The notes: a model not told the origin generated them from the letters alone. A DNA stretch of 64,000 nt from Candidatus Poriferihabitaceae bacterium (GCA_965249835.1 CBDFMY010000003.1:929979-993978), one strand, 5' to 3'; numbered from the stretch's first letter, positions 5,171 to 53,238 are shown. A program made the numbers and translations.

Positions 5171-5369
5171 CTCCATTTTGTATTTGTGTTTGTATTCGCG
5201 ACCTTATTTCCACGAGTACATGGGTATATATAGATGGAAGCCGTAACGGATCGATTACTCGTCCCCTTCAAAGCATAAGGGTGAATGTACTCGTTGTCCG
5301 GTTTTATAGCAAGCATGGCGTTGATGGCTTCGGAGAAGAGTGATTAATTCATCCTCAAGTATAATGAAA

Positions 5370-6182: not shown

Positions 6183-6208
6183 TACAATAAGGTGAATGGC
6201 TTCATGCC

Positions 6209-7072: not shown

Positions 7073-7123
7073 TTCTTTGCTTCCTCCAAATATTTTTTCA
7101 ATGATAAAATGATTACTGTAAGT

Positions 7124-8288: not shown

Positions 8289-8363
8289 TTCACAAGAACA
8301 ATCGAGTTTTTCCGTAAATGTGGAATTTTTAAGGATGCCTCTTTTTCTCACCCATAGTGCGAG

Positions 8364-14202: not shown

Positions 14203-14211
14203 TTCGCTTGC

Positions 14212-14259
14212 GCTTGCCTTTTCGTCGCCATGTTGCGTTGCGCAACAAAGCATGGCGAC
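14212..14259. repeat. Repeat family B, palindromic partial copy (probable bidirectional terminator)
   Basis: GCTTGCCTTTTCGTCGCCATG matches the 5' end of family B. GTCGCCATG...CATGGCGAC forms a hairpin between the convergent permease and LysR genes. Confidence 0.5.
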
Positions 14260-14289
14260 CCCATGAAAATAAAAGCGGGGCAAGCGTGG

Positions 14290-16410: not shown

Positions 16411-16423
16411 TGCTCCGGCAACT

Positions 16424-37269: not shown

Positions 37270-37336
37270 TTTGTTTTACTGACTTTAGTTTGGCTGATTT
37301 TGTTTGGGCGATTTCGTTTGAGCGCGCGGAGTTGGT

Positions 37337-38119: not shown

Positions 38120-38296
38120 GATAATTCGTCGGTCTTTTCAACGCGCCCGTGGCGCCGCGCATTCTATCAAATATTCCGCTCTCAATTGGATTGGCAACCG
38201 AATTGAATGTCAATTCTCCCTGCCACCCGACCCGTGTTTGCGGTAAAATTCGCGGTTATTTTTCAGCCCCACTCATTTGGAGGATAGTCCAAGCAG

Positions 38297-39046
38297 ATGA
38301 AAATTCTGGTTCCAGTGAAACGCGTGATTGACGCCAACATCCGGGTTCGGGTCAAAGCCGACCATAGCGGTGTTGAAACCGCCAATGTAAAAATGGCGAT
38401 GAATCCGTTTTGCGAAATTGCCGTTGAAGAAGCCTTGCGTATCAAGGAAGCGGGCGATGCCGAAGAAGTGATTCTTTTTTCCGCGGGAGCGGAAAAGTCC
38501 CAGGAGACGATTCGCACCGGTCTTGCCATGGGTGCCGACCGCGGCATTCATGTGAATACCGACGAACGTCTCGAGCCGTTGGTCATCGCCAAAATGATCG
38601 CGGCGGTGGCAAAAAAAGAAGACACCGAGTTAATCATTCTCGGTAAGCAATCCATCGACGGTGACAACAATCAAACCGGCCAGATGCTGGCGGCGCTGAT
38701 GCAACGTCCGCTGGGTAGCTATATTTCCCGAATAGAAAAAAACGACGGCGGTTTTGCCATTACTCGCGAGGTCGACGCGGGTTTGGAAAAATTGCAAATC
38801 ACATCGCCGGCGGTGGTCACCACCGACCTGCGCTTGAACGAGCCGCGTTATGCGTCACTGCCGAACATTATGAAGGCGAAGAAAAAACCCATTGACGCGA
38901 TGACGCCGGCCGATCTCGGCGTGGAAGTAAGCCATCGCACGGAAATTCTGAAAGTGGTCGACCCGCCAGAGCGGGAAGCGGGGGTCATGGTGCAAAGCGC
39001 GGCCGAACTGGTAGACAAACTGAAAAACGAAGCAAAGGTGATTTGA
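38297..39046 (+). CDS. etfB: electron transfer flavoprotein subunit beta
   Basis: MKILVPVKRVIDANIRVRVKAD..., 249 aa, overlaps etfA by 4 nt. Confidence 0.9.
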   Translation: MKILVPVKRVIDANIRVRVKADHSGVETANVKMAMNPFCEIAVEEALRIKEAGDAEEVILFSAGAEKSQETIRTGLAMGADRGIHVNTDERLEPLVIAKMIAAVAKKEDTELIILGKQSIDGDNNQTGQMLAALMQRPLGSYISRIEKNDGGFAITREVDAGLEKLQITSPAVVTTDLRLNEPRYASLPNIMKAKKKPIDAMTPADLGVEVSHRTEILKVVDPPEREAGVMVQSAAELVDKLKNEAKVI

Positions 39047-39999
39047 TGAACATTCTGGTTATTGCGGAACACGACCACTCGGCGTTGTATCCGGGAACGC
39101 TGAATACCATTACCGCGGCCGGCGAGATTGGCGCAAAGCAGGGCGACGGTCAAAGTGATGTGCATGTGTTGGTTGCCGGGCACGGCATCGGCGAGATTGC
39201 CAGTGCTTGCGCCGCCGTTGGCGTGGCGAAAGTGCTGGTCGCCGATGATGCGGGATATGCCCATGCCAGCACCGAAGACATCGCCGCGCTGGTGATGGCG
39301 AATGTCGAAAATTACACGCATGTTCTCGCACCGGCATCCACTTTTGGCAAAGCGCTCATTCCATACATTGCCGCGCTACGCGATGTGCAATCGATCTCCG
39401 ACATCAGCGAAGTGGTGGAAGCGGATACTTTTGTGCGACCGATTTACGCCGGCAACGCGATGGAAACGGTGAAATCCTCCGACGCGGTAAAGATGATGAC
39501 GGTGCGCACCACCGCGTTTGAATTGGCAAAAGCCGAAGGTGGCGGTGCGCCAATCGAAAACATTAAGCCAGCGGACACCACCGACCGCGTGAAGTTCATC
39601 GAGCAAACATTGAGTCAGAGCGAGCGACCGGAATTGACCTCGGCGCGGGTGGTCGTATCCGGCGGACGCGGCATGCAAAGCGGCGACAACTTCGCGATGC
39701 TGGAAAAACTGGCAGACAAACTCGGTGGCGCGGTGGGCGCGTCCCGCGCCGCGGTGGACGCGGGCTTTGTTCCCAACGAATATCAGGTCGGACAAACCGG
39801 CAAAGTGGTCGCGCCGGATTTGTATATGGCGGTGGGCATCTCCGGCGCCATCCAGCATCTCGCCGGCATGAAAGATTCCAAATGTATCGTCGCCATCAAC
39901 AACGACGAGGAAGCACCGATTTTTCAAGTGGCGGACTATTCCTGGAACGAAGATTTGTTCATCGCGGTTCCGGCTCTTGAAGCCGAGTTGGGGAAGTGA
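39043..39999 (+). CDS. etfA: electron transfer flavoprotein subunit alpha
   Basis: 318 aa, C-terminal FAD-binding VSGGRGM...[12 protein letters not shown]...[29 protein letters not shown]. Confidence 0.9.
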
Positions 40000-40164
40000 T
40001 GGTTTTTTCCGCAAAAAATCCTGCCCCGCGCTCCCTCACGTCGGTTACGGCATAAAGGTTTTACCGAGTCGCTAACCTTGGGCAAATTGGGGGATGAATA
40101 ATGACCTTGAAACTATGATAGAGTGCCACATGTATCGTGTCGTTAGCCATTACCCGAACCAGCC

Positions 40165-40449
40165 GTGGAGGACATCATGACATCCGTTTTCGCTGTGGTG
40201 TTGGATGAGGAAAACGCGCAAGCGGTGGAGCGCATCCAAGCCGAGTATCCAGATTACCATCAACTGAGTAGCACGCTGTTTTTGGTGAAAAGCAAATCTA
40301 TTGCGGAGAAAGTCGCGCAGGCCGTCGGCATCAAGGGCGATGACTCTATTCAAAGCGGCGTAGTATTCAGGTTGAACCATTCATATGCGGGCTTCACTTC
40401 GCGCGCGCTGTGGGACTGGCTTAAACAGGCCGAGGCTCAAGAAGAATGA
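40165..40449 (+). CDS. hypothetical small protein
   Basis: 94-aa ORF (alternative ATG 40177, MTSVFAVVL). ATGA overlap with the next ORF. No family recognised. Confidence 0.45.
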   Translation: MEDIMTSVFAVVLDEENAQAVERIQAEYPDYHQLSSTLFLVKSKSIAEKVAQAVGIKGDDSIQSGVVFRLNHSYAGFTSRALWDWLKQAEAQEE

Positions 40450-40739
40450 GTGCCCGGAGTGGTCGCCTGCAGGCGGTGGAAAAGCAACCGGAACCACAAG
40501 CAAGCGAGGGTAGCGGCGGTAACGGCAGTGGTGGCGACTATGGCGAGCGGTTGGTCCGAATTGAAACGAAGTTGGAATACTTGGCTACGCAAACAGATAT
40601 TGCGGACCTCAAGGCACTAATCGCAAATAAAGAAACAACCCAGACGCGCTGGCTTGTCGGGGTGGTGCTGACCGCATTAGGGGTATTGCTGACCGCATCA
40701 ATCGCCTTGGTCATTGCCGTAATCCGCACCTTTAATTAG
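40446..40739 (+). CDS. hypothetical protein: Gly/Ser-rich N-terminus, coiled coil, single C-terminal TM helix
   Basis: 97 aa, ...ERLVRIETKLEYLATQTDIADLKALIANKE...WLVGVVLTALGVLLTASIALVIAVI. The architecture resembles XhlA-like phage membrane proteins. This is similarity of architecture only. Confidence 0.45.
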   Translation: MSARSGRLQAVEKQPEPQASEGSGGNGSGGDYGERLVRIETKLEYLATQTDIADLKALIANKETTQTRWLVGVVLTALGVLLTASIALVIAVIRTFN

Positions 40740-40746
40740 CCCCGCA

Positions 40747-41829
40747 CTACTCAAAAACAATCACATTCCGCAACACTTTATCCTGCCGTACATCGTCAAT
40801 GGCGCGGTTGATTTCCTCCAACGGATAACGATTGGAAATCAATTCATCGAGTTTCAAGCGACCGTCTCGGTATAACGCGATGAGTCGGGGAATGTCGATG
40901 CGCAGGCGGGTAGAGCCCATTTTGCTGCCGAGGATGCGTTGACCGGCGCTTGCCATGTCGGTGGCGTCAAACGAAACCAAATCTCCGGTGGGCGGCATGC
41001 CGACTAGGGTCAGGGTGCCGCCCGGTGCCAGCAATGCCAGACCTTGCTCGATGGCTTTGGCACTGCCGGCGGCGGTGAACACATATTCCAAACCTCTACC
41101 GCCAGTGATTTCATCAATGATTTTGCGTGCGTCCGCTTTGGCGGAGTTGATGCGATGAGTTGCGCCGAAGGCCTCGGCGATTTCCAGTTTGCTGTCCACC
41201 ACATCCACGGCGACCAACGGATGCGCGCCGGCAAATGCGGCACCTTGCACCGCATTCAACCCGACGCCGCCGCAACCGACCACGCCGGTGGCGACATTAG
41301 CCGGCAGTTGTGCGGTATTGACCACCGCCCCGAAACCGGTAATCACGCCGCACGACAACAACGAGGCGATGTCAAACGGCAGATCAGCGGGAATCACCGC
41401 CACTTGCGATTGATCGACCACGGTGTATTCGGCGAAAGCACCGGTGCGCAACCCTTGTTTGATTACGGTGCCCTCGCCGTTGTGCATTCGCGCTTCGCGG
41501 TCCAGAGGAAACCGCGTCTCGCAGATATTCAGCCGGCCACCTTCGCAACTCCCGCAGTAACCGCATGAGCGCAACAAAGTCACCAACACCCGGTCGCCGA
41601 CTTTGACCGAGTGCACGCCGCTGCCGACTTCCTCCACGGTGCCGGCGGCTTCATGGCCAAACACCAGTGGCGGCCGCCCGCCCCATCCGCCGTCGGCATA
41701 GGTGATGTCGGAATGACAAACGGCGCAGGCGGCGATTTTTACTTTGACTTCGCCGGTTTTGGGTGGCGCGAGGTCCAGGTCGTCGATGACCATGGGCTTG
41801 CCGAACTCATAACAGACCGCAGCTTTCAT
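40747..41829 (-). CDS. zinc-dependent alcohol dehydrogenase family protein
   Basis: 360 aa, GHEAAGTVEEVG and structural-zinc CGYCGSCEGG motifs, GxGxxG VVGCGGVGL. Confidence 0.85.
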   Translation of the reverse strand: MKAAVCYEFGKPMVIDDLDLAPPKTGEVKVKIAACAVCHSDITYADGGWGGRPPLVFGHEAAGTVEEVGSGVHSVKVGDRVLVTLLRSCGYCGSCEGGRLNICETRFPLDREARMHNGEGTVIKQGLRTGAFAEYTVVDQSQVAVIPADLPFDIASLLSCGVITGFGAVVNTAQLPANVATGVVGCGGVGLNAVQGAAFAGAHPLVAVDVVDSKLEIAEAFGATHRINSAKADARKIIDEITGGRGLEYVFTAAGSAKAIEQGLALLAPGGTLTLVGMPPTGDLVSFDATDMASAGQRILGSKMGSTRLRIDIPRLIALYRDGRLKLDELISNRYPLEEINRAIDDVRQDKVLRNVIVFE

Positions 41830-41939
41830 GAGGGTTCCTCAGGAATGGGTGAGTAGTTTTTCCAGTGCGCAAGTGTCGGCGGCTACGGGTTAAAACGCAA
41901 GCGTGTCAGGCAAGGGACACGCTCCCAACGTAATTCGTA

Positions 41940-43040
41940 TTATGCAAAACGCGATAGATGAAACGGTTGAAGTAATGCAGTTCGTTTGTTCTGCAAAATT
42001 TCCTGCGCCACAAGTTTCCCGACCAACGGCGCCAGAGTAACGCCAGAGTGCATGGTTGCCACATACAGACCGCTGAGTCCGGCGGGCACACCGAGTGCGG
42101 GAAAACCATCCGCCGGTATTGGCCGCGTCCTTCGCACGACCTGGCCGATTTCGAGGTTGCGCACCTTCGGTAACATGCGCTTCAGTCGACCAAGGATGCC
42201 GTCCGCCAGCGTGATTGAATTATCGTCTGCGTTGTCGTTGTTATTGTCGTTGTGACCGTTGTCGCTGAAGGTCTCGCCGGCCACGATTACGCCGTCGCTA
42301 CGTTGCCAAAAATGAACCTCCGGCGCGAACACAACATGTTGCACGACCCGCTCCACCGGGCGGGTGTGGAGAATTATGCCCGCACGGTTGGCGGTCGGCA
42401 GGGCAACGTCGAGCGTGGCAAGCAACGCTTGTGTCGATGCGCCCGCGGCAACCACGACAACTTTGGCGAGTAACTCGCCGTGCGGGGTTTTTACGCCGGA
42501 GATTTTCCCGCGTTCCATAATGAAATCGGTTGCCCGGCAGTGTGGTTTTATTTTTGCTCCGTGTTGTCGGGCCGCGTGCAAAAAAGTTTCGGTGCAGGCT
42601 TTTGCGTCCACCGCGCTTTCCATCCGCGAGTATAAACATTGCGGCGGCGCGGCGATGCCGGGCTCCAGTGCTTTGATTTGTGCGGCATTGATTTTTTCCA
42701 CCTCGTAGCCGTATCCGCTCAGCATTTGATGGTGATGCTCGAATGCGTCACCGGTCAGTTCCCACCACAAACTGCCGATGCACTGCAGGTCAACCTCCAG
42801 GCCATCCGCTTCGCCCGACCGCCCAAGCGTCCGATATTCCGCCATGGCGGCGTGGCGCAAGGCAAAATACGCCGGCGATTCGGCGAAGTTTGCGTTAATC
42901 CATCCGAACGACCCGCCCGATGCACCGGCGGCAACCGATGATTGCTCCAGCACCGTCACCGCCGCACCGCGCTTCGCCAGATGCCACGCAATCGCCGCGC
43001 CAACGACACCGGCGCCGATGATGATGGTTTGTTGGGTCAT
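41940..43040 (-). CDS. FAD-dependent oxidoreductase (DAO family)
   Basis: IIIGAGVVGAAIAWHLAKRG dinucleotide fold. Contains an Asn/Asp-rich low-complexity insert (42216-42266). Confidence 0.85.
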   Translation of the reverse strand: MTQQTIIIGAGVVGAAIAWHLAKRGAAVTVLEQSSVAAGASGGSFGWINANFAESPAYFALRHAAMAEYRTLGRSGEADGLEVDLQCIGSLWWELTGDAFEHHHQMLSGYGYEVEKINAAQIKALEPGIAAPPQCLYSRMESAVDAKACTETFLHAARQHGAKIKPHCRATDFIMERGKISGVKTPHGELLAKVVVVAAGASTQALLATLDVALPTANRAGIILHTRPVERVVQHVVFAPEVHFWQRSDGVIVAGETFSDNGHNDNNNDNADDNSITLADGILGRLKRMLPKVRNLEIGQVVRRTRPIPADGFPALGVPAGLSGLYVATMHSGVTLAPLVGKLVAQEILQNKRTALLQPFHLSRFA

Positions 43041-43102
43041 GATTAATGGACAACATGAAAGATACCACTAGCGATGATGCCCCGCGTTACGATGTGATAC
43101 TT

Positions 43103-43600
43103 CTATCCACTTGATCCGGTGTTATCCGGTTGATTCGATGTTATCGATTGATCCGGTATTGCCGGTACTCCTTTATTCATTTTTTTGGCATCAGGGTTTT
43201 CAAATTCACGTTGTTTTTCGGCACCACGATGCGCAAAATAGAATCCGATGACGGCGCCGGTAAGCGTACCGAAAGCAGTGACGACACTATCAAATTTATC
43301 TACTTCATGCCCCAAGATGAGAAAGATTACAAATGTCCCAACGACGAGCAAAGCAAGCATACTGCGCACCGATCCTTGAGGAAGATTCAATCCTCTCAGG
43401 GGAGCAGATTTATCCCGTTTGCAACAGGAAACGATCGTTCCACCGATTAACACAAAACTGATGTAGACAAGTTCAGCAATGACTAATGGCGACCATGACG
43501 AGTCCCCAGCATTTTCTGATCCTTGGGCGAACGCAGGAACGGTCAGCGTGGTAAAAATAAGGAACAGGGAAAGATGCAAAAAGAGATGAAACATGACCAC
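43103..43600 (-). CDS. hypothetical membrane protein (signal peptide + ~3 TM)
   Basis: 165 aa, AT-rich codon usage, MVMFHLFLHLSLFLIFTTLTVPAFA signal-like N-terminus. No family recognised. Confidence 0.5.
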   Translation of the reverse strand: MVMFHLFLHLSLFLIFTTLTVPAFAQGSENAGDSSWSPLVIAELVYISFVLIGGTIVSCCKRDKSAPLRGLNLPQGSVRSMLALLVVGTFVIFLILGHEVDKFDSVVTAFGTLTGAVIGFYFAHRGAEKQREFENPDAKKMNKGVPAIPDQSITSNQPDNTGSSG

Positions 43601-43696
43601 ATCCTCAAGGCAAAGTAGGACGGAACATTGTATGCGTAGGCTCGAAGAAATTCAATCATAACATCCGCTACCTTTCATTCCAAATCGGTATGTTTT

Positions 43697-43789
43697 ATGA
43701 TTAACAAACTGGAAATAGGAATCAACCAACTCGTCTATTAACTCTACGACTTGACACCTGATGAAATTAAAATCGTGGAGGAATCTTAG
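43697..43789 (+). pseudogene. relic of the C-terminal tail of a type IIG/BREX-like DNA methyltransferase
   Basis: Translates MINKLEIGINQLVY*LYDLTPDEIKIVEES*. The ...QLVYELYGLTxEEIKIVE tail is typical of such methyltransferases. TAA (43739-43741) replaces the expected GAA. It ends 3 nt before the TcmP ATG. Confidence 0.55.
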
Positions 43790-43791
43790 TA

Positions 43792-44700
43792 ATGAACGAT
43801 TTTATCAATGAACCGAACTCTTCCAAATATGGCGGAGACTGGTCAGATCAAAAACTCTCAGCGTTGTCCAAATATTTAGTGGCTTATACAACTGCTTTGA
43901 AGAAACAGCCGTTTTCTTTGGTTTATATTGATGCCTTTGCTGGCGGGGGCAGATTTGACATCACCGCCGAGCAAGGACATTCATCGTTACTATTTGAAGG
44001 AGAGATAGAAGATGTAGAAGCGCAGAAGCAATATCGACACGGGTCTCCATTGGTTGCGCTAAATACAAACCCTCCTTTTGATAAATTTATTTTTATTGAA
44101 AAAAATGAGCAGTCACTACAGCGTCTGGGAAATGAAATTACGCAACAGAACTACCAAGACAAAGACATTGAGTGTATTCATGGCGATGCCAACGAAAAAA
44201 TTGCTGAAATCTGCGATACGATAGATTGGATATCTCACAGAGCGGTTGCTTTTATTGACCCGTTTGCCACAGAAGTTAAATGGCAAACTATTGAGAAAAT
44301 AGCCAGTACTTGTGCTATTGATTTATGGTTGTTGTTTCCAGCTATGGCGGTGAATCGTATGCTGACCGTAGATGGAAAAATTCCTCCGCAGTGGCAAGAA
44401 AAACTTACTGAGTGTTTCGGGACGGATGAATGGCAACGAGTTTTTTATAAAGACAAACCCCAACAGACACTTCTTAAAGAGGAATCAAGCATAACAAAGG
44501 TTTCCGATTTTTTTGAAGATCTTAGACAGTTTGTTAATCATCGATTAGAAAGTGTTTTTCCAGGGGTCAGCAAAAATAATCTGGTATTGAATAATTCCAA
44601 AAATTCACCACTATTTTTGTTATGCTTTGCTTGCTCCAATCCCAAGGGGGTTGGTTTGTCTTTGAGAATTGCTAATCACATTATAGATACTTCATCATGA
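43792..44700 (+). CDS. three-Cys-motif partner protein TcmP (RlmJ-like methyltransferase-fold by my reading)
   Basis: 302 aa, AT-rich, immediately upstream of a DUF5131 gene and overlapping it (ATGA). Motifs YIDAFAGGGRF, RHGSPLVA and AFIDPF parallel RlmJ motifs (YLDTHAGAGRY, YPGSPLIA, LIDPPYE). Confidence 0.65.
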   Translation: MNDFINEPNSSKYGGDWSDQKLSALSKYLVAYTTALKKQPFSLVYIDAFAGGGRFDITAEQGHSSLLFEGEIEDVEAQKQYRHGSPLVALNTNPPFDKFIFIEKNEQSLQRLGNEITQQNYQDKDIECIHGDANEKIAEICDTIDWISHRAVAFIDPFATEVKWQTIEKIASTCAIDLWLLFPAMAVNRMLTVDGKIPPQWQEKLTECFGTDEWQRVFYKDKPQQTLLKEESSITKVSDFFEDLRQFVNHRLESVFPGVSKNNLVLNNSKNSPLFLLCFACSNPKGVGLSLRIANHIIDTSS

Positions 44701-45434
44701 CTCAATCGGCAATCGAATGGACCGAACAAACCTGGAACCCGGTCACTGGTTGTACAAAAATCTCGGCGGGGTGTAAGCACTGCTACGCCGAGACCATGGC
44801 ACGGCGGTTGCATGCCATGGGTGCGGCGGGTTATGAAAATGGTTTCGCGGTTTCCTGCCACGAGAATCGTTTGTCAGTTCCGTTGCGACGCAAGACGCCA
44901 ACCATGTATTTTGTAAATTCCATGAGCGATCTTTTTCATCCGTATGTGTCCTTTGCGTTCATTGACAAGGTTATGCAGACAATTTGCGCTACTCCGCAAC
45001 ATACTTATCAAATCCTGACCAAACGTCCGGCAACGATGGCGAAGTATTTTTCCTCTCGAAAGGCACCGAATAACGCTTGGCTCGGTGTGTCGGTGGAAAA
45101 CAAAAGGCACGGGGTTCCTCGTATTGACGGCTTGCGAAATATTGATGCAAAAATTCGTTTCCTTTCGGTGGAGCCGTTGCTGGAATCCATCGGGGAAGTA
45201 AACCTTGCCAACATTCACTGGGTCATCGTCGGTGGTGAGAGCGGCAAAGGTGCACGTCCCATGCAGACGCAATGGGTCACGGATATCAAGCGACAGTGTC
45301 GTGCCTCGGGCGCACGTTTCTTTTTCAAGCAGTGGGGTGCCCACGGAAGCGATGGCGTGAAACGCAGCAAAAAAGCCAACGGCAGAATATACCGTGGCCG
45401 TACCTGGGACGAAATGCCCGTTGTGAGTTTATAA
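44697..45434 (+). CDS. DUF5131 / phage Gp37-Gp68 family protein (three-Cys motif)
   Basis: The N-terminus IEWTEQTWNPVTGCTKISAGCKHCYAE is the family hallmark, with Cys19, Cys26 and Cys29. Confidence 0.85.
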   Translation: MTQSAIEWTEQTWNPVTGCTKISAGCKHCYAETMARRLHAMGAAGYENGFAVSCHENRLSVPLRRKTPTMYFVNSMSDLFHPYVSFAFIDKVMQTICATPQHTYQILTKRPATMAKYFSSRKAPNNAWLGVSVENKRHGVPRIDGLRNIDAKIRFLSVEPLLESIGEVNLANIHWVIVGGESGKGARPMQTQWVTDIKRQCRASGARFFFKQWGAHGSDGVKRSKKANGRIYRGRTWDEMPVVSL

Positions 45435-45562
45435 AAACACTTTCCGAAAACCTTCGTATTTTTCTGGAAAGAACTTGAAATGCTTGCTTTCGACCTAAAA
45501 TTAGATACAATTAGCCAAAGTAGTGAATTTACTATTTTGACTAATTATCTATTAATTTCACC

Positions 45563-46777
45563 ATGAGCGGCAATCCATACCGACCCGGCGCAGCCCACGC
45601 GCCGCCTTATCTGGCCGGCCGCGATACCGAACGGCAGGAATTTTCCCGACTTCTGAAGCAAGCACCAATATTGGAAAATCTGGTGCTGACTGGTATCCGT
45701 GGCATCGGCAAAACCGTTCTTCTGCGTGAAGCGCTCAGAAAAGATGCCGGCGAAAGCGGCTGGATTTGGGTGGGTAGCGATATTTCCGAAGCGGTTTCTG
45801 TCAGCGAAAACCACCTTGCACTACGTCTGCTGACAGATTTGAACACCTTTTCTGCGGATTGGGAATATGCCTCTAATGAACGGCATCCCATCGGTTTCGC
45901 CACTACCCCAGAACGCCAAACGATTCGTTTTGATTATCAAACTATGATGGCATTGTTTGAGCAAGAACCGGGATTAACTTCGGACAAGATTAAACGAATT
46001 TTGTTGCTCGCCTGGGAATTAATGCAAAAGAACATGCGAGACAAAAAGGGGATTATCTTTGCCTGGGACGAGGCGCAAAATCTGACAGATCGTAGCAAGG
46101 ACAACGAATACCCTCTGGGCGTGCTACTTGATGTGTTTAGTTCCTTGCAAAGCCAAGGGGTGCCTTTCATGCTGGTGTTGACCGGGTTGCCGACCTTGTT
46201 CCCCAAACTGGTCAACTCCCGCACATTTGCCGAGCGGATGTTTCGGGTGATGCCACTGGATAATCTAAACCCGGATGATGGCTATAAAGCCATCACAGAA
46301 CCGTTGAAGAAAGAACCAAAACGGGTACAAACTTTCTTTAACTCTAACAAGAAAGCAATTTACAGTATCACCAAAGGCTACCCGTATTTTATCCAGTTTT
46401 GGTGCAGAGAATTATATGATTATATGATCGATGTCGACTCGCTTACTCCTACAGAACTCACTGAGCGTATATCCCGTAAACTGGATATGGATTTCTTTGA
46501 AGGTCGCTGGACAGGATTGGCCGATAGACAGCGCGATGTATTGAATATCATCGCGCATCTTAAAAACAGCGGTGGGGAGTTCACCGTGCAAGAAATTGTG
46601 GAACAATCGAAAATCAGCGAGCGTGAATTTAGTGGAAGTCACGTCAGTCAAATACTGAACAGTTTATTCAACAAAGGCATGGTATTCAAAAACCGACACG
46701 GAAAATATATCCTGGCAGTACCTCTGCTGGATCAATACATCCGTCGGCGCATGCATGGAGACAATACCAATGAATAA
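45563..46777 (+). CDS. P-loop ATPase (AAA_16/ORC-Cdc6-like) with C-terminal winged-helix domain
   Basis: 404 aa. LAGRDTERQEFSRLL then Walker A GIRGIGKT (45692-45715), Walker B-like IIFAWDEAQ, C-terminal wHTH-like QRDVLNIIAHL...FTVQEIVEQSKI...SQILNSLFNKGMV. Confidence 0.7.
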   Translation: MSGNPYRPGAAHAPPYLAGRDTERQEFSRLLKQAPILENLVLTGIRGIGKTVLLREALRKDAGESGWIWVGSDISEAVSVSENHLALRLLTDLNTFSADWEYASNERHPIGFATTPERQTIRFDYQTMMALFEQEPGLTSDKIKRILLLAWELMQKNMRDKKGIIFAWDEAQNLTDRSKDNEYPLGVLLDVFSSLQSQGVPFMLVLTGLPTLFPKLVNSRTFAERMFRVMPLDNLNPDDGYKAITEPLKKEPKRVQTFFNSNKKAIYSITKGYPYFIQFWCRELYDYMIDVDSLTPTELTERISRKLDMDFFEGRWTGLADRQRDVLNIIAHLKNSGGEFTVQEIVEQSKISEREFSGSHVSQILNSLFNKGMVFKNRHGKYILAVPLLDQYIRRRMHGDNTNE

Positions 46778-46857
46778 AATTTCCGCATACTTTAGAATAA
46801 GATGACGATGTATCCCGAACAAAAATTCACAATCCAACCATCGCACCGGAGAAAAAA

Positions 46858-47271
46858 GTGGAGCATATCTCCTACAAAAAAGGATATAAATATCAACTGA
46901 GCGCGAATTATTCGACCGAGATTAACATCCAGCCTGACCGGCTTATTGACAGCGACTATATTTCATTGACGACGCGCGGCCGCATTACCATTAAGGACGG
47001 ATACGCATGGGATGGTCCGTCGGGACCGCTCATAGACACTTTGAATTTTATGCGCGGCTCGTTGCTGCACGATGCATTGTATCAATTAATGCGAGAGGGC
47101 GCGTTGGATAAGGATAACCATCGAAAGGATGCGGATAAGTTGTTGCGAAAAATTTGCAAGGAGGATGGAATGAGCGCATTGCGAGCCTGGATGGTGTATA
47201 CGAGTGTTCGTTATTTTGGTGAGACGTCTGCGGATCCGGCGAATAAAAAACGAGACTTTCACGCGCCATAA
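46858..47271 (+). CDS. DUF1353 domain protein
   Basis: 137 aa, GTG start with GGAG upstream. IKDGYAWDGPSGP...GSLLHDALYQL matches the DUF1353 pattern. Confidence 0.65.
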   Translation: MEHISYKKGYKYQLSANYSTEINIQPDRLIDSDYISLTTRGRITIKDGYAWDGPSGPLIDTLNFMRGSLLHDALYQLMREGALDKDNHRKDADKLLRKICKEDGMSALRAWMVYTSVRYFGETSADPANKKRDFHAP

Positions 47272-47313
47272 TGCCAATCTTGCATCGCACCAAACATCGC
47301 CACTGAATGAAAA

Positions 47314-48624
47314 ATGAGAACGCCTCGACTGCTTAACGATCTGTTTTCGCGCATCGCCGAAGTCGGAAACTCCCTTGTCTCCTCCGTATCCGAGGAAAGC
47401 CTCGGCGACCTGTGCGCGGCTTTGTTATCCGGACGCGGCGAGGCTACGGGCCTTGCGTTGGCCGGGGAAATTTTCGCACGCTACGCCAAACTAAACACGG
47501 CGGACAAGCGCGTGTTCTTTGTCGAAGCGGCGCAACGTTTCGGTGTGGATGAAAATGCGTTGGAGGAAGCACTCGCGGCTTGGCGGGAAACAGACGGCGC
47601 CGGCAAGGATGAGATTGACCGACGCATGATTCACTTCGCCAGCGAGCCGCGCAGTCAGGAATTAATTCGGCGTTTGAATCGCGTTCCCGGCGGCACGCAG
47701 GCGTTGGTGGCAATGCGCACCGACTTGTTGGCGGCGGCGGAAGAGGACGCCGGCTTAAAACAACTGGACATGGATTTTCAGCACTTGCTGGCTTCGTGGT
47801 TCAATCGCGGTTTTCTCGAATTACGCCGCATTGACTGGTCGAGTTCCGCGGAGATTCTGGAAAAGATTATCGCTTACGAAGCGGTGCACGCCATTGACGG
47901 CTGGGACGACCTGCGTCTGCGAGTCGCAGCTCCCGACCGTCGGCTTTATGCGTTTTTTCATCCGGCGCTGGTCGATGAGCCGTTAATTTTTGTCGAAGTC
48001 GCGTTGACCAACGAAGTTCCCAAAGCGATTAATCCAATCCTCGCCGCCGAGCGCACAAGGCTGGACCCGAACACCGCCACCGTTGCGGTGTTTTATTCCA
48101 TCTCCAACTGTCAGGCCGGGTTGCGTGGCGTTTCGTTCGGTAACTTTCTCATCAAACAGGTGAGCGAGGAATTGCAGGGCGAATTCAAGACGCTTAAAAC
48201 TTTCGTCACGTTGTCGCCGATGCCGGGTTTGCGGCGTTGGGCGAGTGCTGAATGTGCGCGTGGCGATGCAAGCGTGCTAAGCAAAAAGCAACAAGATTTA
48301 TTGTCGGCGATGAATTGCGATGACGATAACACCGACATTGACGACGATGTTTTGTTGGAAGTGACCGCACATTATTTGCTGAAAGCAAAAACCAACGGCG
48401 CACCGTTCGATCGAGTGGCGCGTTTTCATCTCGGTAACGGCGCAAGGTTGGAATGGATCAACATCGATGCCGACCGCAGTGCGCGCGGCATCGGTAATTC
48501 CTGGGGCGTGATGGTTAACTATCTATACGACCTCGCTGCCATCGAACGAAATCACGAGTCATTCGCCAACCACGGCAAGATTATTTGTTCGTCCGGCGTG
48601 AAAAGGTTGCTGAAAAAAAAGTGA
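47314..48624 (+). CDS. malonyl-CoA decarboxylase
   Basis: 436 aa. The ...FFHPALVDEPLIFVEVAL...FYSISNCQAGLRGVSFGNFLIKQV... pattern is that of the MCD family. Confidence 0.85.
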   Translation: MRTPRLLNDLFSRIAEVGNSLVSSVSEESLGDLCAALLSGRGEATGLALAGEIFARYAKLNTADKRVFFVEAAQRFGVDENALEEALAAWRETDGAGKDEIDRRMIHFASEPRSQELIRRLNRVPGGTQALVAMRTDLLAAAEEDAGLKQLDMDFQHLLASWFNRGFLELRRIDWSSSAEILEKIIAYEAVHAIDGWDDLRLRVAAPDRRLYAFFHPALVDEPLIFVEVALTNEVPKAINPILAAERTRLDPNTATVAVFYSISNCQAGLRGVSFGNFLIKQVSEELQGEFKTLKTFVTLSPMPGLRRWASAECARGDASVLSKKQQDLLSAMNCDDDNTDIDDDVLLEVTAHYLLKAKTNGAPFDRVARFHLGNGARLEWINIDADRSARGIGNSWGVMVNYLYDLAAIERNHESFANHGKIICSSGVKRLLKKK

Positions 48625-50168
48625 TGGACAAGCCCGGCACACCGAGCACTTGTCTCGACAATCATCTTGCCGCGCATTTGCGCGGCGCTTCGGTTGGGCG
48701 CGAGCAGACACGCTTTGCCGAAATGCCGGATGGGCGGATGATTTCCTGCGGCGAGTTGTTCGCGACGGCCGAGCGCATGGCCGCGGTGCTCGCGACATCT
48801 GGCATATCACGCGGAGACCGCGTTGCGGTGCAGGTCGAAAAATCGCCGGAGGCGGTGCAACTTTATCTCGGCACGGTGCTGGCGGGCGGCGTTTTCTTGC
48901 CTTTCAATCCGGCTTACACGGCGGTGGAGATGGCGTATTTCCTGGGCGATGCTACACCGTCGGTATTCGTTTGCGACCCGTGCAAAGTGCAAGCCCTGAG
49001 CGCGATTGCCGAACAGGCCGGAGTCGGCGCACAATTTTCACTCGCCGCCGATGGTTCGGGTACGCTGATGGATGCGGCCGCCGAACAGTCCGGCGGATTT
49101 GATGTGGTGGCGTGTGGCGAAGACGATCTTGCGGCAATTTTATACACATCGGGCACCACCGGCCGCGCCAAGGGCGCGATGCTAAGCCACGGCAACCTCG
49201 TCGCCAATGCGCGCACACTCACCGACTACTGGCGTTTTTCCGATTCCGATGTGTTGATTCACGCGTTGCCGATCTTTCACACCCACGGCCTTTTCGTGGC
49301 GATTCATGTCGCGCTGATGGCACGCTCGTCGTTGATTTTTTTACCCGAGTTTGATGCCGATGCAATCATCGCGGCGATGTCGCGCGCCACAACTTTAATG
49401 GGCGTGCCGACTTTTTATGTTCGCTTGCTCGACCATCCAACATTAAATCGCGCCGTAACCGCCGGTATGCGCTTGTTCGTGTCGGGCTCGGCGCCGTTGC
49501 CGGCGGAAATACACGAACGATGGCGCGAGAAAACCGCTCACGCCATCCTCGAACGCTACGGCTTGACCGAAACTGGAATGAATCTCTCCAACCCATATCA
49601 CGGTGAACGGCGCGCCGGCCGGGTTGGGTTCCCGCTACCGGGGGTGGAGATGCGAATCACCGACCCGGGCACGGGCGTGGAATTGCCGCACGGCGAAGTC
49701 GGTGTTATCGAAGTGCGCGGGGCGAATGTGTTTCGGGGTTACTGGCGCATGCCGGAAAAAACCCGCGAGGAATTGCGCGACGATGGATTTTTTATCACCG
49801 GTGATTTGGCAATGGTGGATGATCTCGGCTATGTGTCCATCGTTGGTCGCGCCGGAGATTTGATTATTTCGGGCGGCTACAACATTTACCCAAAGGAAAT
49901 TGAAAACCAAATTGGCACTATCCCTGGCGTTAAAGAATCCGCGGTGTTCGGGCTTCCGCATCCGGATTTCGGCGAATGGGTTGCGGCGGTGGTGGTGGGT
50001 GATTCCGAGGCGAGGCTGACAGAAGACGATGTGCTTGTTCATCTCAAACACAAACTGGCGAGATTTAAACAACCGAAGCGAATTTTTTTCACCGAAGAAC
50101 TTCCGCGCAACGCAATGGGCAAAATTCAAAAAAATAGTCTGCGCGAAAAATACGGCAGCGCGGTATAA
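48624..50168 (+). CDS. malonyl-CoA synthetase-like AMP-dependent ligase
   Basis: Start at ATG 48624, overlapping the MCD TGA by 1 nt (track ORF starts 48585). Motifs ILYTSGTTGRAKGAMLSH, YGLTETG and GDLAMVDDLGYVSIVGR. Confidence 0.8.
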   Translation: MDKPGTPSTCLDNHLAAHLRGASVGREQTRFAEMPDGRMISCGELFATAERMAAVLATSGISRGDRVAVQVEKSPEAVQLYLGTVLAGGVFLPFNPAYTAVEMAYFLGDATPSVFVCDPCKVQALSAIAEQAGVGAQFSLAADGSGTLMDAAAEQSGGFDVVACGEDDLAAILYTSGTTGRAKGAMLSHGNLVANARTLTDYWRFSDSDVLIHALPIFHTHGLFVAIHVALMARSSLIFLPEFDADAIIAAMSRATTLMGVPTFYVRLLDHPTLNRAVTAGMRLFVSGSAPLPAEIHERWREKTAHAILERYGLTETGMNLSNPYHGERRAGRVGFPLPGVEMRITDPGTGVELPHGEVGVIEVRGANVFRGYWRMPEKTREELRDDGFFITGDLAMVDDLGYVSIVGRAGDLIISGGYNIYPKEIENQIGTIPGVKESAVFGLPHPDFGEWVAAVVVGDSEARLTEDDVLVHLKHKLARFKQPKRIFFTEELPRNAMGKIQKNSLREKYGSAV

Positions 50169-50207
50169 GTTTCGGTAACCGCCGCCGCGCAAAAGTTGTG
50201 CGCAACT

Positions 50208-51848
50208 TTACTCCGATACAATCGAATGTTGATCGAGACGCAGTAGCACCGGCTCGTTTTGTTCGAGGGCATGCGCGAACGCATTTTCAAGTTCGCCGCC
50301 CAGAGTGGACAGCGATTCCACCACTTGTGCGCGCCACCCGCAAGCACGCGCCAGCGCGATGAAATCCGGGTTTTGCTGGCGCACGCCGAGCGGTTGGATT
50401 CCGGCGGCGTCCATGTCATCGCGTATTTGTTGCAACGCATCGTTGTTCCACAGCAGGACGACCAGATTTAATTTCAATTCCGCCGCCAGCGTCATCTCCT
50501 GCATGGTGTATTGCAAACCGGCATCGCCAACCATCACCAACGCAGACGCGTGCGGTCGGGTGAGCAACGCGCCGATGGCCGCCGGCAACGCGTAGCCGAG
50601 CGTGCCGTAGCCGCATGGATGCAGCCACAAATTCGGTTTGGCAAGCGGCACAAAGTCGATCGCGGTATACGCCAGTTGCGTCATGTCGCTGGCGATGATG
50701 GTGTCCGGCGGCAAGTGCGCGAGGATTTTGTTGATGACTTTGAGATGTGTTTTTTCCATGCGCGTGTATTCTTTTTTCACCGAAGCACGCACGTGGTTGC
50801 AACGTTTGCGTGCCGCCGAAAGTTTTGATTCGGACAACGGCGGAAGCGATTCGCTAATGCGCTGCGCCGCATCGCCGGCTTCGCCATGAATGGTGATGAT
50901 CGTGCTGTGGGTTTTTTGCTTGGTGATTCGTTTCAGCAACGCACCGTCAAGGTTGATCCAAATTTGTTGTTGCGGAAGAATTAAATTGTCATTCCAATGA
51001 TCCGGCTCGGCGAGTTCAGTGCCGATAAAAACCCCGAGGTCGGAATCGGCGAGCAGTTTTTGTATGCCGGACGAACGCAGTTGCGCGCCGGCGCACAGCG
51101 GATGATCATCGGGAATAATTCCGCGACCGGCGACGGTGGTTAACAACGGACACGGAATTTCCTGTGCCAACCGCAAAATATTTTCCGCGCAACCGCTTGC
51201 ACCGCCACCGGCGACGATGACCGGCTTTTGCGCAAGTTGCAATGCCAGCGCGGTTTCATGAAGTTGGTCGCGTTCGCCAAGTTGCGGCAACGGCGGCGAT
51301 TGCGCACGCCATTTTTTCGCGACCGACATCGGCAGGATGGAAAGCGGGATGCTGATATGCACCGGTGCCGGCCTTTCGCTCGCAAACAAGGCAAACGCCC
51401 GCGCCAGCAGTTGCGGTATTTCATCGGGCTTCCCGACCGTGGCGCTGAACGCGGTGAGGGGCGCGGTTACCGCCGACTGGTTGGTGATTTCGTGCAGCCT
51501 GCCGCGATTGTGGTTATCCGGATCCGGCTCATTCACCGGCGAGATCACCAGCATCGGCACCGCGTCCATATACGCTTCGCCGAGCGGCGTGGCGATGTTG
51601 GTTACGCCGGGCCCGGTGATGACAAAACACACGCCGGGTTTGCCGCTGATGCGTGCGTAGCCGTCCGCCATGAAGCCGCCGCCCTGTTCGTGGCGAGGCG
51701 AGATGTGCCGGAGGTTGCCCGCACCGAGCCCGCGGTAGAGTTCAATGCTGTGGGTGCCGGGGATGCCGAACACCAACTCCACGCCGTAGTCGGCGAGCAA
51801 TTCCACCAGAGCTTCGCCCACTGTCGGTTTGCGGGTTTTTTGGTTCAT
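50208..51848 (-). CDS. thiamine-pyrophosphate enzyme (AruI / 5-guanidino-2-oxopentanoate decarboxylase-like)
   Basis: 546 aa, TVGEALVELLADYGVELVFGIPGTHSIELYRGL N-terminus, TPP motif GDAGLQYTMQE...NN. Confidence 0.75.
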   Translation of the reverse strand: MNQKTRKPTVGEALVELLADYGVELVFGIPGTHSIELYRGLGAGNLRHISPRHEQGGGFMADGYARISGKPGVCFVITGPGVTNIATPLGEAYMDAVPMLVISPVNEPDPDNHNRGRLHEITNQSAVTAPLTAFSATVGKPDEIPQLLARAFALFASERPAPVHISIPLSILPMSVAKKWRAQSPPLPQLGERDQLHETALALQLAQKPVIVAGGGASGCAENILRLAQEIPCPLLTTVAGRGIIPDDHPLCAGAQLRSSGIQKLLADSDLGVFIGTELAEPDHWNDNLILPQQQIWINLDGALLKRITKQKTHSTIITIHGEAGDAAQRISESLPPLSESKLSAARKRCNHVRASVKKEYTRMEKTHLKVINKILAHLPPDTIIASDMTQLAYTAIDFVPLAKPNLWLHPCGYGTLGYALPAAIGALLTRPHASALVMVGDAGLQYTMQEMTLAAELKLNLVVLLWNNDALQQIRDDMDAAGIQPLGVRQQNPDFIALARACGWRAQVVESLSTLGGELENAFAHALEQNEPVLLRLDQHSIVSE

Positions 51849-52017
51849 AGTTTTGAGTGTCGCTCGAACGGCACTGATTGGGACGGTATCATATCCCGGA
51901 CGGATTCATTCATTCAAGAAAAGGGTAAGATAGGCAGACGCAAATGTTGTCATTCTAATACCTCCGGAAAAAGATATAATGTCTGCAATCCCTTCCCCCA
52001 TCGCGTCCAACATTCAG

Positions 52018-52053
52018 CACGCCGGGCAACACGCCGGGCAACACGCCGGAACA
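52018..52053 (+). repeat. 12-bp tandem repeat (2 perfect + 1 imperfect unit) upstream of the aminotransferase start
   Basis: CACGCCGGGCAA CACGCCGGGCAA CACGCCGGAACA. Confidence 0.8.
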
Positions 52054-52059
52054 GCCATA

Positions 52060-53238
52060 ATGAAATTTTCCAGACTGACCGAACGAATCGCCGGCGAGAG
52101 CGTGGATGTCTGGGATGTGCACTACGATGGTATGGCGCGTTTGGAAGCCGGCGAAGACATTATTATGCTCAGCGTCGGTCAGGAAACCGAGGAGTTTACC
52201 CCGGCAAACATCGTTGACGCCGCGGTTGAAAGTCTGCGTGCCGGTCGTCATCACTACACTTCGGTCAACGGCAATCTCGATCTTCGACGGGCGGTGGCGC
52301 GTCGCCACTTTGAACTGACCGGCCGCACCATCGGCGACTTTAATTGTGCGATTTTCGCCGGCGCGCAAAACGCCTTGTTCGCGGTGGCGCAATGTCTGTT
52401 GGAAAAAGGCGATGAAGTGATTTTGTCGGAGCCGTATTACACCACTTATCCGGCCACCTTCGGCGCATCGGGGGCGACGCTGGTGAGTGTTCCGGTGAAA
52501 TTCGAGAACGGATTTGAAATCGACCCCGACGACATCATCAAAGCCATCACCCCGCGCACTCGCGCCATCGTGCTGAACTCCCCCAACAACCCGGTGGGCG
52601 CGGTTTATAGCCTGGAGCAATACGCCCCGATTGTGCGTGCCTGCGTGGAAAAGGAAATCTGGTTAATCAACGATGATGTTTATCTGGAATTGCTTGGCGA
52701 TTCCGAACGCGCCAACCCGCTCAGCCTGCCGGACGCCGAACGGGTGTGCATCACCGTATCCAGCGTCTCCAAATCCCATCGCATGACCGGCTGGCGGCTC
52801 GGCTGGGTAATCGGGCCGGATGCACTGATGGAACATTTATACAACCTCGCCATGTGTTTGTCCTATGGACTGCCCTCATTCGTGCAGGATGCGGCGCTGG
52901 TGGCGATCAATTCGGGAACCGCCACGGCGGCCGATGTGCGCAGCAAACTCGACCGGCGGCGGCAAATTTTATTGCGCGAACTGGACGGCATCCACGGGCT
53001 CAAACTATTCAGCGCCGAAGGCGGAATGTTCGTTGTGTTCGACATCAGCGCGATGCCAATCTCGGCACGGCAATTCGCGCGCGAGTTGCTGGAGCGGCAC
53101 AATGTCACCATTCTTCCCTGCGATGGATTTGGCACTTCGCCGGCCTGCGCCGATTTGTTGCGGGTCAGTTTATGCGTTGATGATGAACGCCTGGTGGAGG
53201 CTTGCGAGCGCATCATTAGATATGTAAATTCGCTTTAA
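52060..53238 (+). CDS. class I/II pyridoxal-phosphate aminotransferase (AruH / arginine-pyruvate transaminase-like)
   Basis: Start at ATG 52060 (MKFSRLTERIAGESVDVWDVHY) is preferred over track ATG 51979. SVSKSHRMTGWRLGW is the PLP-lysine context. Confidence 0.8.
   Translation: MKFSRLTERIAGESVDVWDVHYDGMARLEAGEDIIMLSVGQETEEFTPANIVDAAVESLRAGRHHYTSVNGNLDLRRAVARRHFELTGRTIGDFNCAIFAGAQNALFAVAQCLLEKGDEVILSEPYYTTYPATFGASGATLVSVPVKFENGFEIDPDDIIKAITPRTRAIVLNSPNNPVGAVYSLEQYAPIVRACVEKEIWLINDDVYLELLGDSERANPLSLPDAERVCITVSSVSKSHRMTGWRLGWVIGPDALMEHLYNLAMCLSYGLPSFVQDAALVAINSGTATAADVRSKLDRRRQILLRELDGIHGLKLFSAEGGMFVVFDISAMPISARQFARELLERHNVTILPCDGFGTSPACADLLRVSLCVDDERLVEACERIIRYVNSL

Follow-up and report, generated by a model that had tools for sequence, protein, structure and literature searches.

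What kind of element occupies positions 43103-47271 of the 64,000-nucleotide stretch of Candidatus Poriferihabitaceae bacterium DNA analysed here (GCA_965249835.1, CBDFMY010000003.1:929979-993978; hereafter the window)? This island of low guanine-cytosine (GC) content carries a gene pair for TcmP and a DUF5131 protein, a P-loop ATPase gene, a DUF1353 gene and a small membrane open reading frame (ORF). An earlier reading, made from the sequence alone (the sequence-only reading), had taken these five genes as a candidate module for nucleic-acid modification or defence. We favour, with moderate confidence, a different explanation: the island would be the mosaic remnant of a defence island derived from a type IIG restriction-modification (R-M) operon, and the TcmP–DUF5131 pair a nucleic-acid-acting, S-adenosylmethionine (SAM)-dependent module with an exchangeable partner. 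The island is a mosaic of four separately mobile pieces and not a single five-gene system. The features that carry this argument are as follows.

43703-43789, plus strand: C-terminal relic of a type IIG methyltransferase, 28 codons (translation; tblastn)
43792-44700, plus strand: TcmP, PDC-M41A (TIGR04474; PADLOC PDC-M41A)
44697-45434, plus strand: DUF5131 protein of the Gp37/Gp68 family, PDC-M41B (PF07505; PADLOC)
43705-45442, plus strand: mobile two-gene cassette, comprising the relic, TcmP and DUF5131 (blastn borders)
45443-45562, plus strand: upstream region of the ATPase gene, presumed promoter/operator (alignment of 13 loci; blastn)
45563-46777, plus strand: AAA_16-type P-loop ATPase with a putative winged-helix-like C-terminus (Pfam, PHROG)

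The TcmP–DUF5131 pair as a mobile cassette

The proteins of the window were scanned against the Pfam, PADLOC, NCBIfam and PHROG profile libraries. TcmP matches TIGR04474 with 204 bits (cut-off 53, E 4e-60) and the PADLOC model PDC-M41A with an E value of 9.6e-102, residues 10-300 aligning with positions 4-296 of 298 in the model. DUF5131 matches PF07505 with 353 bits (gathering threshold 28.9, E 1.1e-105), both PDC-M41B (2.3e-109) and PDC-M30B (4.4e-111) in PADLOC, and phrog_2045 in PHROG (2e-92). The profile of rSAM mobile pair protein A (TIGR04471) scored 97 bits against an equivalog cut-off of 355, which indicates a related family and not membership. The A and B matches of PDC-M41 are adjacent on the same strand, and the two genes overlap by 4 nucleotides (nt) in an ATGA, as the sequence-only reading had described. 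The pair thus resembles the catalogued PDC-M41/PDC-M30 candidates, whose A and B models it matches over their full length at about 1e-100, and the TcmP/PF07505 pair of TIGRFAMs, with which it shares scores above both cut-offs, the ATGA overlap and three invariant cysteines. Both families are large, with more than 3,300 relatives of TcmP and at least 8,000 of DUF5131.

The closest relatives of TcmP, at 62-83% amino-acid identity, are found in three different contexts. In L002, the pair lies immediately 3' of the gene for an intact type IIG-type methyltransferase of 599 amino acids (aa; MmeI_Mtase/Eco57I/TaqI_C). In L001, it lies inside a type I R-M locus, between hsdS/Fic on one side and AAA_14 and hsdR on the other, and in L003 it stands alone among housekeeping genes. 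DNA identity to the window, as measured by blastn, is 88% for L002 (43705-45418), 88% for L001 (43740-45442) and 72% for L003. The homology begins at ~43705-43765, inside the relic, and ends at ~45418-45442, a few bases past the DUF5131 stop codon. All three loci retain a methyltransferase-tail remnant upstream of TcmP, and none of them has an intact ATPase gene or a DUF1353 gene. By these borders, TcmP–DUF5131 is a self-contained mobile two-gene cassette of 1.7 kb, which corresponds to the PADLOC candidate PDC-M41.

A broader sample of TcmP comprised 80 metagenomic and six viral loci with 32-50% identity. In 51 of the 65 diverse loci with enough sequence, TcmP is followed immediately by DUF5131, so that the pair is conserved, as previously stated, while the ATPase, DUF1353 and the membrane ORF occur in none of the 86. 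The pair also keeps company with defence genes at several loci. It is embedded in a type I R-M locus for a second time in L162, and it adjoins two Abi genes in Leisingera; in Nostoc, TcmP and a protein annotated as radical SAM adjoin BREX-1. The Nostoc arrangement, and the reversed order of TcmP and DUF5131 in alphaproteobacterial plasmids, depart from the pair as found in the window. In Sinorhizobium meliloti, the TcmP gene is two locus tags away from the defence gene Hna and its expression rises with that of Hna (PMC12445080). The PDC set itself consists of 145 candidates, which were predicted from their positions inside BREX, DISARM or type I R-M loci (Payne et al., bioRxiv 10.1101/2024.01.29.577857). 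The window relatives in L001 and L162 conform to such embedding in type I R-M; in contrast, in the lineage of the window the pair closes a type IIG operon and is not an insert in a type I R-M or BREX locus, as described below.

The pair and the ATPase are intact and under purifying selection. The ratio of non-synonymous to synonymous substitution rates (dN/dS) is 0.05-0.13 for DUF5131 against distant loci and 0.23 against the near-identical locus L192, 0.11-0.34 for TcmP and 0.08-0.25 for the ATPase. Because these ratios are low, the three are functional genes and not debris. All invariant residues of the three families are present in the window proteins.

Natural replacement of TcmP in a sister genome

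By way of the membrane ORF we reached L192, a circular contig of 2.8 Mb from a metagenome, in which this island occupies the corresponding position. Compared with the window, it is 96.7% identical over 36000-43789 and 98% over 44710-52005 and 51998-52338, and the TcmP gene alone is unalignable. In its place is a gene for a 345-aa protein, with a GC content of 0.33, which matches PDC-M30A (9.5e-60), is 21% identical to TcmP and keeps the D-x-F-A-G-x-G and D-P-(F/Y) motifs. The 5' breakpoint falls inside the relic, which is identical through INQLVY and then genome-specific for the last ~16 codons; its 3' counterpart falls at codon 5 of DUF5131. L192 was the only syntenic genome found, and it already carries the island.

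Because two near-identical genomes share DUF5131 but have A genes of only 21% identity, PDC-M41 and PDC-M30 are one system, in which alternative A genes share one B gene. The A gene travels with the end of the type IIG gene, and we infer that it was exchanged by recombination in two conserved flanks, namely this type IIG tail and the beginning of the DUF5131 gene. In type I R-M systems, the specificity modules of hsdS are exchanged by recombination between conserved flanks. The replacement of TcmP is similar in that a variable gene between conserved flanks has been replaced precisely in near-identical genomes. It is different in that the swapped unit is a whole methyltransferase-fold gene and not a target-recognition domain, and in that no inverted repeats or recombinase are present near the TcmP slot. 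TcmP would be exchanged as a cassette by homologous recombination, like a specificity subunit, and the swap between L192 and the window points to the partner as the specificity determinant.

Derivation from a type IIG operon

The translation of 43703-43789 is KLEIGINQLVY*LYDLTPDEIKIVEES*, with an in-frame stop. In tblastn, the relic showed 71% identity (E 5.5e-5) to residues 572-599 of the L002 methyltransferase, which form its C-terminal end. The gene of this intact homologue stops 2 nt before TcmP, and the same distance (TA) separates the relic stop from the TcmP ATG in the window; the methyltransferase relic noticed earlier just before TcmP is therefore real, although the spacer had been given as 3 nt. 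The relic corresponds to the C-terminal tail of the type IIG (Eco57I/MmeI) family, whose full-length members are located upstream of the pair in L002, L086-L089 and L120, but only 28 codons are retained in the window. No other remnant was detected in the window by tblastn with full-length type IIG enzymes. Because only these 28 codons with an in-frame stop remain, this locus can encode no R-M activity. We also considered the methyltransferase tail as a general feature of TcmP loci and rejected it, as it was present in just one of 75 distant loci (L120, where the methyltransferase is intact); the relic therefore marks one clade.

The order of the genes from which the relic may descend is seen in four related loci, L086-L089: ATPase, type IIG enzyme, TcmP or a PDC-M30A-type gene, and DUF5131. 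The type IIG enzymes are Eco57I/TaqI_C proteins of 1278-1318 aa, and the ATPase stop codon is 3 nt ahead of, or overlaps, their start. The A gene varies here as it does between L192 and the window, being TcmP in L087, a truncated TcmP in L089 and of the PDC-M30A type in L086 and L088, whereas the DUF5131 proteins are 81-88% identical. The arrays are flanked by an HKD-Snf2 helicase, an MzaA-like protein and an NYN/HEC-09 gene. The sequence-only reading had assigned the upstream gene to an R-M or BREX system. The R-M part of this assignment holds, in the form of a type IIG enzyme, and the BREX part does not: PglX, PglZ, BrxC and BrxL are all absent from the island, and the upstream enzyme in the relatives matches REase_MTase_IIG of PADLOC at 1e-148 (L088 copy) versus PglX at 5e-19.

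Traces of this operon are scattered over other loci. L001 has a 76-aa ORF that matches ATPase residues 4-55 and is joined straight to the methyltransferase tail, a junction that looks like an internal deletion. In L084 and L085, which hold the closest lone ATPases, the ATPase gene is followed by frameshifted remnants of a type IIG N-terminus. In the window, the last position of the cassette is 45442 and the first of the ATPase unit is 45443. From these comparisons, the ancestral operon of the sponge symbionts consisted of a presumed promoter, an AAA_16-type ATPase with a putative winged helix, a type IIG enzyme, a TcmP variant and DUF5131. The window carries a rearranged and decayed derivative with the order methyltransferase tail, TcmP, DUF5131 and ATPase, because the L001 fragment, the L084 and L085 remnants and the 45442/45443 junction tie the scattered forms to the operon. 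The type IIG gene has been deleted down to its last 28 codons, and the ATPase unit abuts the other side of the cassette. The pair had been thought to have replaced, or inserted into, a methyltransferase gene; it was instead a downstream operon partner of that gene, which was deleted later. The order of the operon also suggests which further proteins may act with the pair.

Three other observations were made on these arrays. In L087 (Ca. Spongiihabitans), copies of one DDE transposase family (DUF772/DDE_Tnp_1) at 5284-6279 and 15923-16918, with another at 264-1187, bracket the block of the MzaA-like gene, ATPase, type IIG, TcmP, DUF5131 and NYN genes, which may represent a composite-transposon arrangement. 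At ~6170-7915 of L086-L089, between the HKD-Snf2 helicase and the ATPase, a protein of 505-553 aa has sigma-70 regions 1.2, 2, 3 and 4 and matches MzaA in PADLOC (5.5e-65); a sigma-factor-like gene is unusual in a defence island. L088 has an extra ORF of 450 aa (13114-14466) between the type IIG and PDC-M30A-type genes, with weak matches of the coiled-coil type to JetC and DruC, and a 185-aa relative is found at the same position in L089.

Predicted folds and function of the pair

TcmP was described earlier as a methyltransferase-fold protein and DUF5131 as a protein with a cysteine cluster. Foldseek searches with AlphaFold2 models agree with both descriptions and add a radical-SAM-like fold, a partial TIM barrel, for DUF5131. 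The TcmP model (pLDDT, the predicted local distance difference test score, 85.5) gave 101 PDB matches with E ≤ 1e-3, and nearly all of the 50 listed are SAM methyltransferases. The fold matches generic class I enzymes with E values of ~1e-5 to 1e-4 and template modelling (TM) scores of 0.3-0.44, and the best TM-score belongs to the tRNA methyltransferase Trm1 (3axs). Class I methyltransferases were again obtained from a viral structure library. The invariant residues of TcmP are D47-x-F-A-G-x-G53 and D156-P157, and the motif IV-like D156-P157-F is suggestive of amino-methyltransferases.

For the DUF5131 model (pLDDT 85.9), the top six PDB matches are all spore photoproduct lyase (including 4fhc and 4fhg), with E values of 1e-4 to 2e-3 and TMq of 0.46-0.57, followed by TIM barrels and radical-SAM enzymes (lipoyl synthase, EpeE and AprD4). 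RadicalSAM.org lists DUF5131 as a radical-SAM subgroup in megacluster 5, together with spore photoproduct lyase (PMC9477430). Unlike the lyase, with which it has an identity of 11-12%, DUF5131 is ~100 residues shorter, and it is predicted to need a methyltransferase-fold partner. The lyase has the cysteine spacing C-x3-C-x2-C, in contrast to C19-x6-C26-x2-C29 in DUF5131, where the three cysteines are invariant in 37 sequences; a GGESG motif is also invariant.

On these models, DUF5131 would be the conserved catalytic subunit, a predicted radical enzyme with a [4Fe-4S] cluster and SAM whose nearest structural relative acts on DNA, and TcmP a predicted SAM-binding, methyltransferase-fold partner that sets the target or specificity. 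The pair is predicted to act on nucleic acid, most likely DNA, the substrate to which the spore-photoproduct-lyase-like fold points; by modifying or processing it, the pair would provide an accessory anti-phage function. This function would be independent of the restriction enzyme, because intact pairs occur in L003, the window and L192 without a type IIG gene nearby. The pair is widespread and already a catalogued defence candidate; what is new here is its type IIG ancestry, the unity of PDC-M41 and PDC-M30, and the lyase-like fold.

Two other functions may be considered for the pair. One is that of a selfish cassette that protects mobile genetic elements, for example by hypermodifying DNA to escape restriction, and that hitchhikes in R-M loci and phages, surviving as an orphan once the restriction gene has been lost. 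The pair does occur in phage genomes and on conjugative plasmids, a methyltransferase fold is combined with a radical-SAM-like fold, the pair survives intact without a nuclease partner in L003 and the window, and a place directly 3' of a methyltransferase-nuclease fusion would suit extra self-protection. Genes placed in a prophage immunity region typically serve defence rather than DNA protection. The immunity region of the Gordonia phage BaxterFox has a TcmP-like gene behind the immunity repressor (no DUF5131 is annotated beside it), the combination of a hypervariable partner and a conserved enzyme resembles the specificity switching of defence systems, and mobilome functions were excluded before the PDC candidates were chosen (bioRxiv 10.1101/2024.01.29.577857). 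None of these three points against self-protection is decisive, and we regard the selfish cassette as rather unlikely; the pair is probably an accessory defence module, and less likely a self-protective modification module.

The other function is housekeeping RNA modification, by a Trm1-like tRNA or rRNA methyltransferase with a radical-SAM partner similar to RlmN or Cfr. Radical-SAM RNA methylases such as RlmN and Cfr exist, and the best TM-score of TcmP is that to Trm1. However, the pair has a patchy, horizontal distribution and a low GC content, it is found embedded in R-M loci, near-identical genomes differ by a swap of the A gene, and the fold of DUF5131 is nearest to a DNA-repair enzyme. 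We consider a housekeeping role very improbable.

Several points weigh against an accessory defence module of type IIG descent. The defence role is assigned by guilt by association, and the occurrence of the family in phages (phrog_2045) suits anti-restriction or self-protective DNA modification equally well. The structural matches are moderate (TM 0.46-0.57 for DUF5131 and 0.3-0.44 for TcmP), PDB sequence searches with single proteins and profiles returned no significant match for either protein, and the canonical radical-SAM motif C-x3-C-x2-C is absent from DUF5131, although variant cysteine spacings occur within the radical SAM superfamily. Literature searches on TcmP/TIGR04474, DUF5131/PF07505, PDC-M41 and PDC-M30 gave no functional study, in line with the earlier statement that the role of the pair is experimentally undefined. 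The L086-L089 loci come from related genomes and possibly reflect a single evolutionary event, and the A-gene swap could be neutral recombination instead of diversifying selection. Finally, the ATPase adjoins the pair in the window and L192 and is near it in L086-L089, so that a functional link is possible.

A bolder version of the accessory-defence reading, which we hold only tentatively, is that the pair represents a new class of nucleic-acid-targeting immunity, in which a spore-photoproduct-lyase-like radical-SAM enzyme is steered by an exchangeable methyltransferase-fold subunit. An unusual DNA modification would then be written or removed, or foreign DNA would be damaged by radical chemistry. 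The A genes of PDC-M41 and PDC-M30 would represent alternative specificities, and the pair would have evolved as the back-end of type IIG operons, able to act alone after loss of the enzyme. If radical-SAM chemistry on DNA is indeed the mechanism, it would be a novelty in bacterial immunity; otherwise, the island is ordinary decayed defence-island cargo of a sponge-symbiont genome.

The ATPase unit

The ATPase scored 40.2 bits against AAA_16 (threshold 32.6), with weaker matches to AAA_22, ATPase_2 and nSTAND6. It matches phrog_6841 over its full length (3e-46), and PADLOC gives weak P-loop matches, none of them convincing. The Walker A (G44-x-x-G-x-G-K-T51) and Walker B (D169-E170) residues are invariant. 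The protein had been read as an ATPase with a winged-helix tail; the first half agrees with the AAA_16 match, which is just above threshold, whereas the matches of residues 320-390 to winged-helix families are weak and below cut-off (DUF7343, 20.6 versus 27.6 bits; ArsR-type and MCM). In its Walker motifs, its length of ~400 aa and its putative C-terminal winged-helix-like region, it resembles the AAA_16/ATPase_2 'archaeal ATPases' (ORC/Cdc6-like). In contrast to these, it matches no characterised member, and the palindromic region upstream of its gene is specific to its clade. Sequence and profile searches of the PDB gave no significant match.

A genome scan yielded 16 close relatives (L084-L099) with 69-85% amino-acid identity, all in metagenome-assembled genomes of sponge symbionts that span several orders and two phyla (several gammaproteobacterial families and Nitrospirales). 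Such identity across phyla therefore indicates horizontal spread of the ATPase. In 12 of the 16 genomes, it is a lone gene flanked by housekeeping genes, for example metH, transketolase, recQ, porin and acyl-CoA ligase. With 122 clusters at E ≤ 1e-30 in a set of 1.84 billion representatives, this is a small family; the viral-contig scan contained no relative, and isolated phages gave a single match with 27% identity. Neither terminal repeats, which were looked for at the borders of the unit, nor an integrase or transposase at the borders in L084-L099 were found.

DNA homology among these loci covers the gene and ~20-120 nt upstream, the blastn alignments with L084-L099 starting at 45443-45541. 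At ~7900-9240 of L084-L099, the ATPase gene and ~95 nt upstream retain 70-88% DNA identity from Gammaproteobacteria to Nitrospirales. An alignment of 13 loci of different lineages revealed a conserved CTTGC, a spacer and a TATAAT-like box (TACAAT in the window), followed downstream by the palindrome CTAAATTTA(G/C) (CTAAATTTAG) and TAATTA repeats. This upstream region is presumably the ATPase's own promoter/operator; because a generic promoter scan missed the box, the assignment draws on conservation alone. The ATPase would be an autoregulated, DNA-binding NTPase that acts alone or with the type IIG enzyme, and the pair probably does not depend on it.

DUF1353, the membrane ORF and the island as a whole

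ORF calling placed five intact ORFs in 43103-47271, with the coordinates given previously and, as previously stated, between the genes for an FAD oxidoreductase and malonyl-CoA decarboxylase (MCD). The remaining genes and the flanks are as follows.

43103-43600, minus strand: small membrane ORF, 165 aa (ORF call; hydropathy)
46858-47271, plus strand: DUF1353 protein (PF07087; phrog_1158)
41940-43040, minus strand: flank, DAO-family FAD oxidoreductase (Pfam)
47314-48624: flank, malonyl-CoA decarboxylase (Pfam)

GC content is 0.391 for TcmP, 0.515 for DUF5131, 0.472 for the ATPase, 0.473 for DUF1353 and 0.456 for the membrane ORF, compared with 0.586 and 0.551 for the flanking genes and 0.541 for the whole window. 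The island is therefore low in GC with TcmP its most AT-rich gene, as had been noted. Look-ups of TcmP, DUF5131 and the MCD protein by identical sequence gave no match, nor did an Rfam scan of the island, and a generic scan for promoters and terminators did not rise above the shuffled expectation.

The DUF1353 gene, correctly recognised in the sequence-only reading, matches PF07087 with 30.4 bits (cut-off 22.5, 3e-7) and phrog_1158 with 5.5e-27; PDB sequence and profile searches gave no significant match, and the 80-nt spacer before it has no significant structure. Contigs of IMG/VR contain 244 relatives with up to 64% identity. Neither the ATPase nor TcmP was present in the 80 viral DUF1353 loci examined (L004-L083), and L192 is the only one of the ATPase and TcmP loci examined that has a DUF1353 gene. 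The viral neighbours are heterogeneous and mostly early or accessory genes (Gam-like, ParB-like, HTH antitoxin), sometimes with an endolysin. The PHROG label of phrog_1158, 'tail assembly chaperone', was considered and set aside, as these neighbourhoods do not support it. DUF1353 is a single copy of an accessory gene that is widespread in phages, and it is not a conserved partner of the other island genes.

The membrane ORF, reported earlier as a divergently encoded protein with three transmembrane segments, is divergent and has three hydrophobic stretches, of which the N-terminal one is signal-like. It matches nothing in Pfam, PADLOC, NCBIfam or PHROG, and 24 homologues were found. Its dN/dS against L192 is 0.82 on 18 differences, and the gene is either doubtful or fast-evolving. 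In L193, a relative forms a separate insertion after aroE, with the other island genes absent. There, at 5858-8845, the relative and a 141-aa ORF have a complete shikimate dehydrogenase gene on one side and a 54-aa SDH_C fragment on the other, so that the 3' end of aroE seems to have been duplicated or displaced by the insertion. DUF1353 and the membrane ORF are independent cargo gathered at the site, unrelated to the other island genes.

These results bear on whether all five genes form one integrated defence system for modification and sensing, with the NTPase as sensor. The five-gene order is kept in L192, the four plus-strand genes are closely spaced, and L086-L089 and, with a fragment of the ATPase, L001 also link the ATPase to the pair. 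However, the synteny with L192 is uninformative because the two genomes are ~97% identical, and among the loci examined this sister genome is the only one where DUF1353 and the membrane ORF accompany the pair. Both are missing from the 16 ATPase, three close TcmP and 86 distant TcmP loci, and the 80 viral DUF1353 loci lack the ATPase and TcmP. The blocks of DNA homology end between genes, and the ATPase gene comes with a conserved upstream region of its own and is mostly found alone. The proposal of a single system, whose 'modification plus sensor' logic was an inference, is already largely refuted and in our view hardly credible; the part that survives is the linkage of the ATPase and the pair at other loci (L086-L089, the L001 fragment and L192).

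A cryptic prophage fragment, that is, genes left from a degraded phage, had been named as the main alternative. It draws on the phage links of DUF5131 (phrog_2045, 2e-92), the ATPase (phrog_6841, 3e-46) and DUF1353 (phrog_1158, with its 244 relatives on viral contigs). Against it, scans for ORFs and with Pfam and PHROG detected no integrase, structural, replication or lysis gene in the island, a search for flanking and att-like repeats of the island found none, and a tRNA search found no tRNA in the entire 64-kb window; the sequence-only reading had itself pointed out the lack of integrase, tRNA and flanking repeats. In addition, the pair and the ATPase have their close relatives in chromosomal R-M or defence loci or among housekeeping genes, the viral-contig scan gave no relative of the ATPase, and no contiguous-block alignment was found between 43.7-46.8 kb and complete phage genomes. 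A prophage origin of the island is thus quite improbable, and only DUF1353 is plausibly phage-derived.

Other features of the window

The FAD oxidoreductase gene (41940-43040) has diverged strongly from its counterpart at 10522-11661 of L192, with ~80 non-synonymous changes, a dN/dS of 0.91 and 63 gap positions, versus two in the neighbouring MCD gene. The window protein has an Asp/Asn-rich insert, DNGHNDNNNDNADDNS. A frameshift, variability of a low-complexity region or a pseudogene state in one of the two genomes may account for the divergence.

A second patch of low GC content (0.37-0.41) is located at 5370-7147 (minus strand) and 7723-8268. It contains a split GmrSD-like type IV restriction enzyme, in which a GmrSD_N ORF is followed by an ORF with HNH and DUF4357, and the split genes are adjoined by a truncated DDE transposase ORF. 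At 22127-23242 (plus strand), the window encodes a full Fic/DOC protein (Fic_N, Fic and SoFic-like_C), to which residues 161-194 of the Fic protein in the L001 R-M locus are 59% identical. Two overlapping small ORFs of 94 and 97 aa without a Pfam match, the second with a hydrophobic end, occupy 40165-40739 (plus strand), between a 212-aa ORF on the minus strand (39376-40014) and an ADH-like gene.

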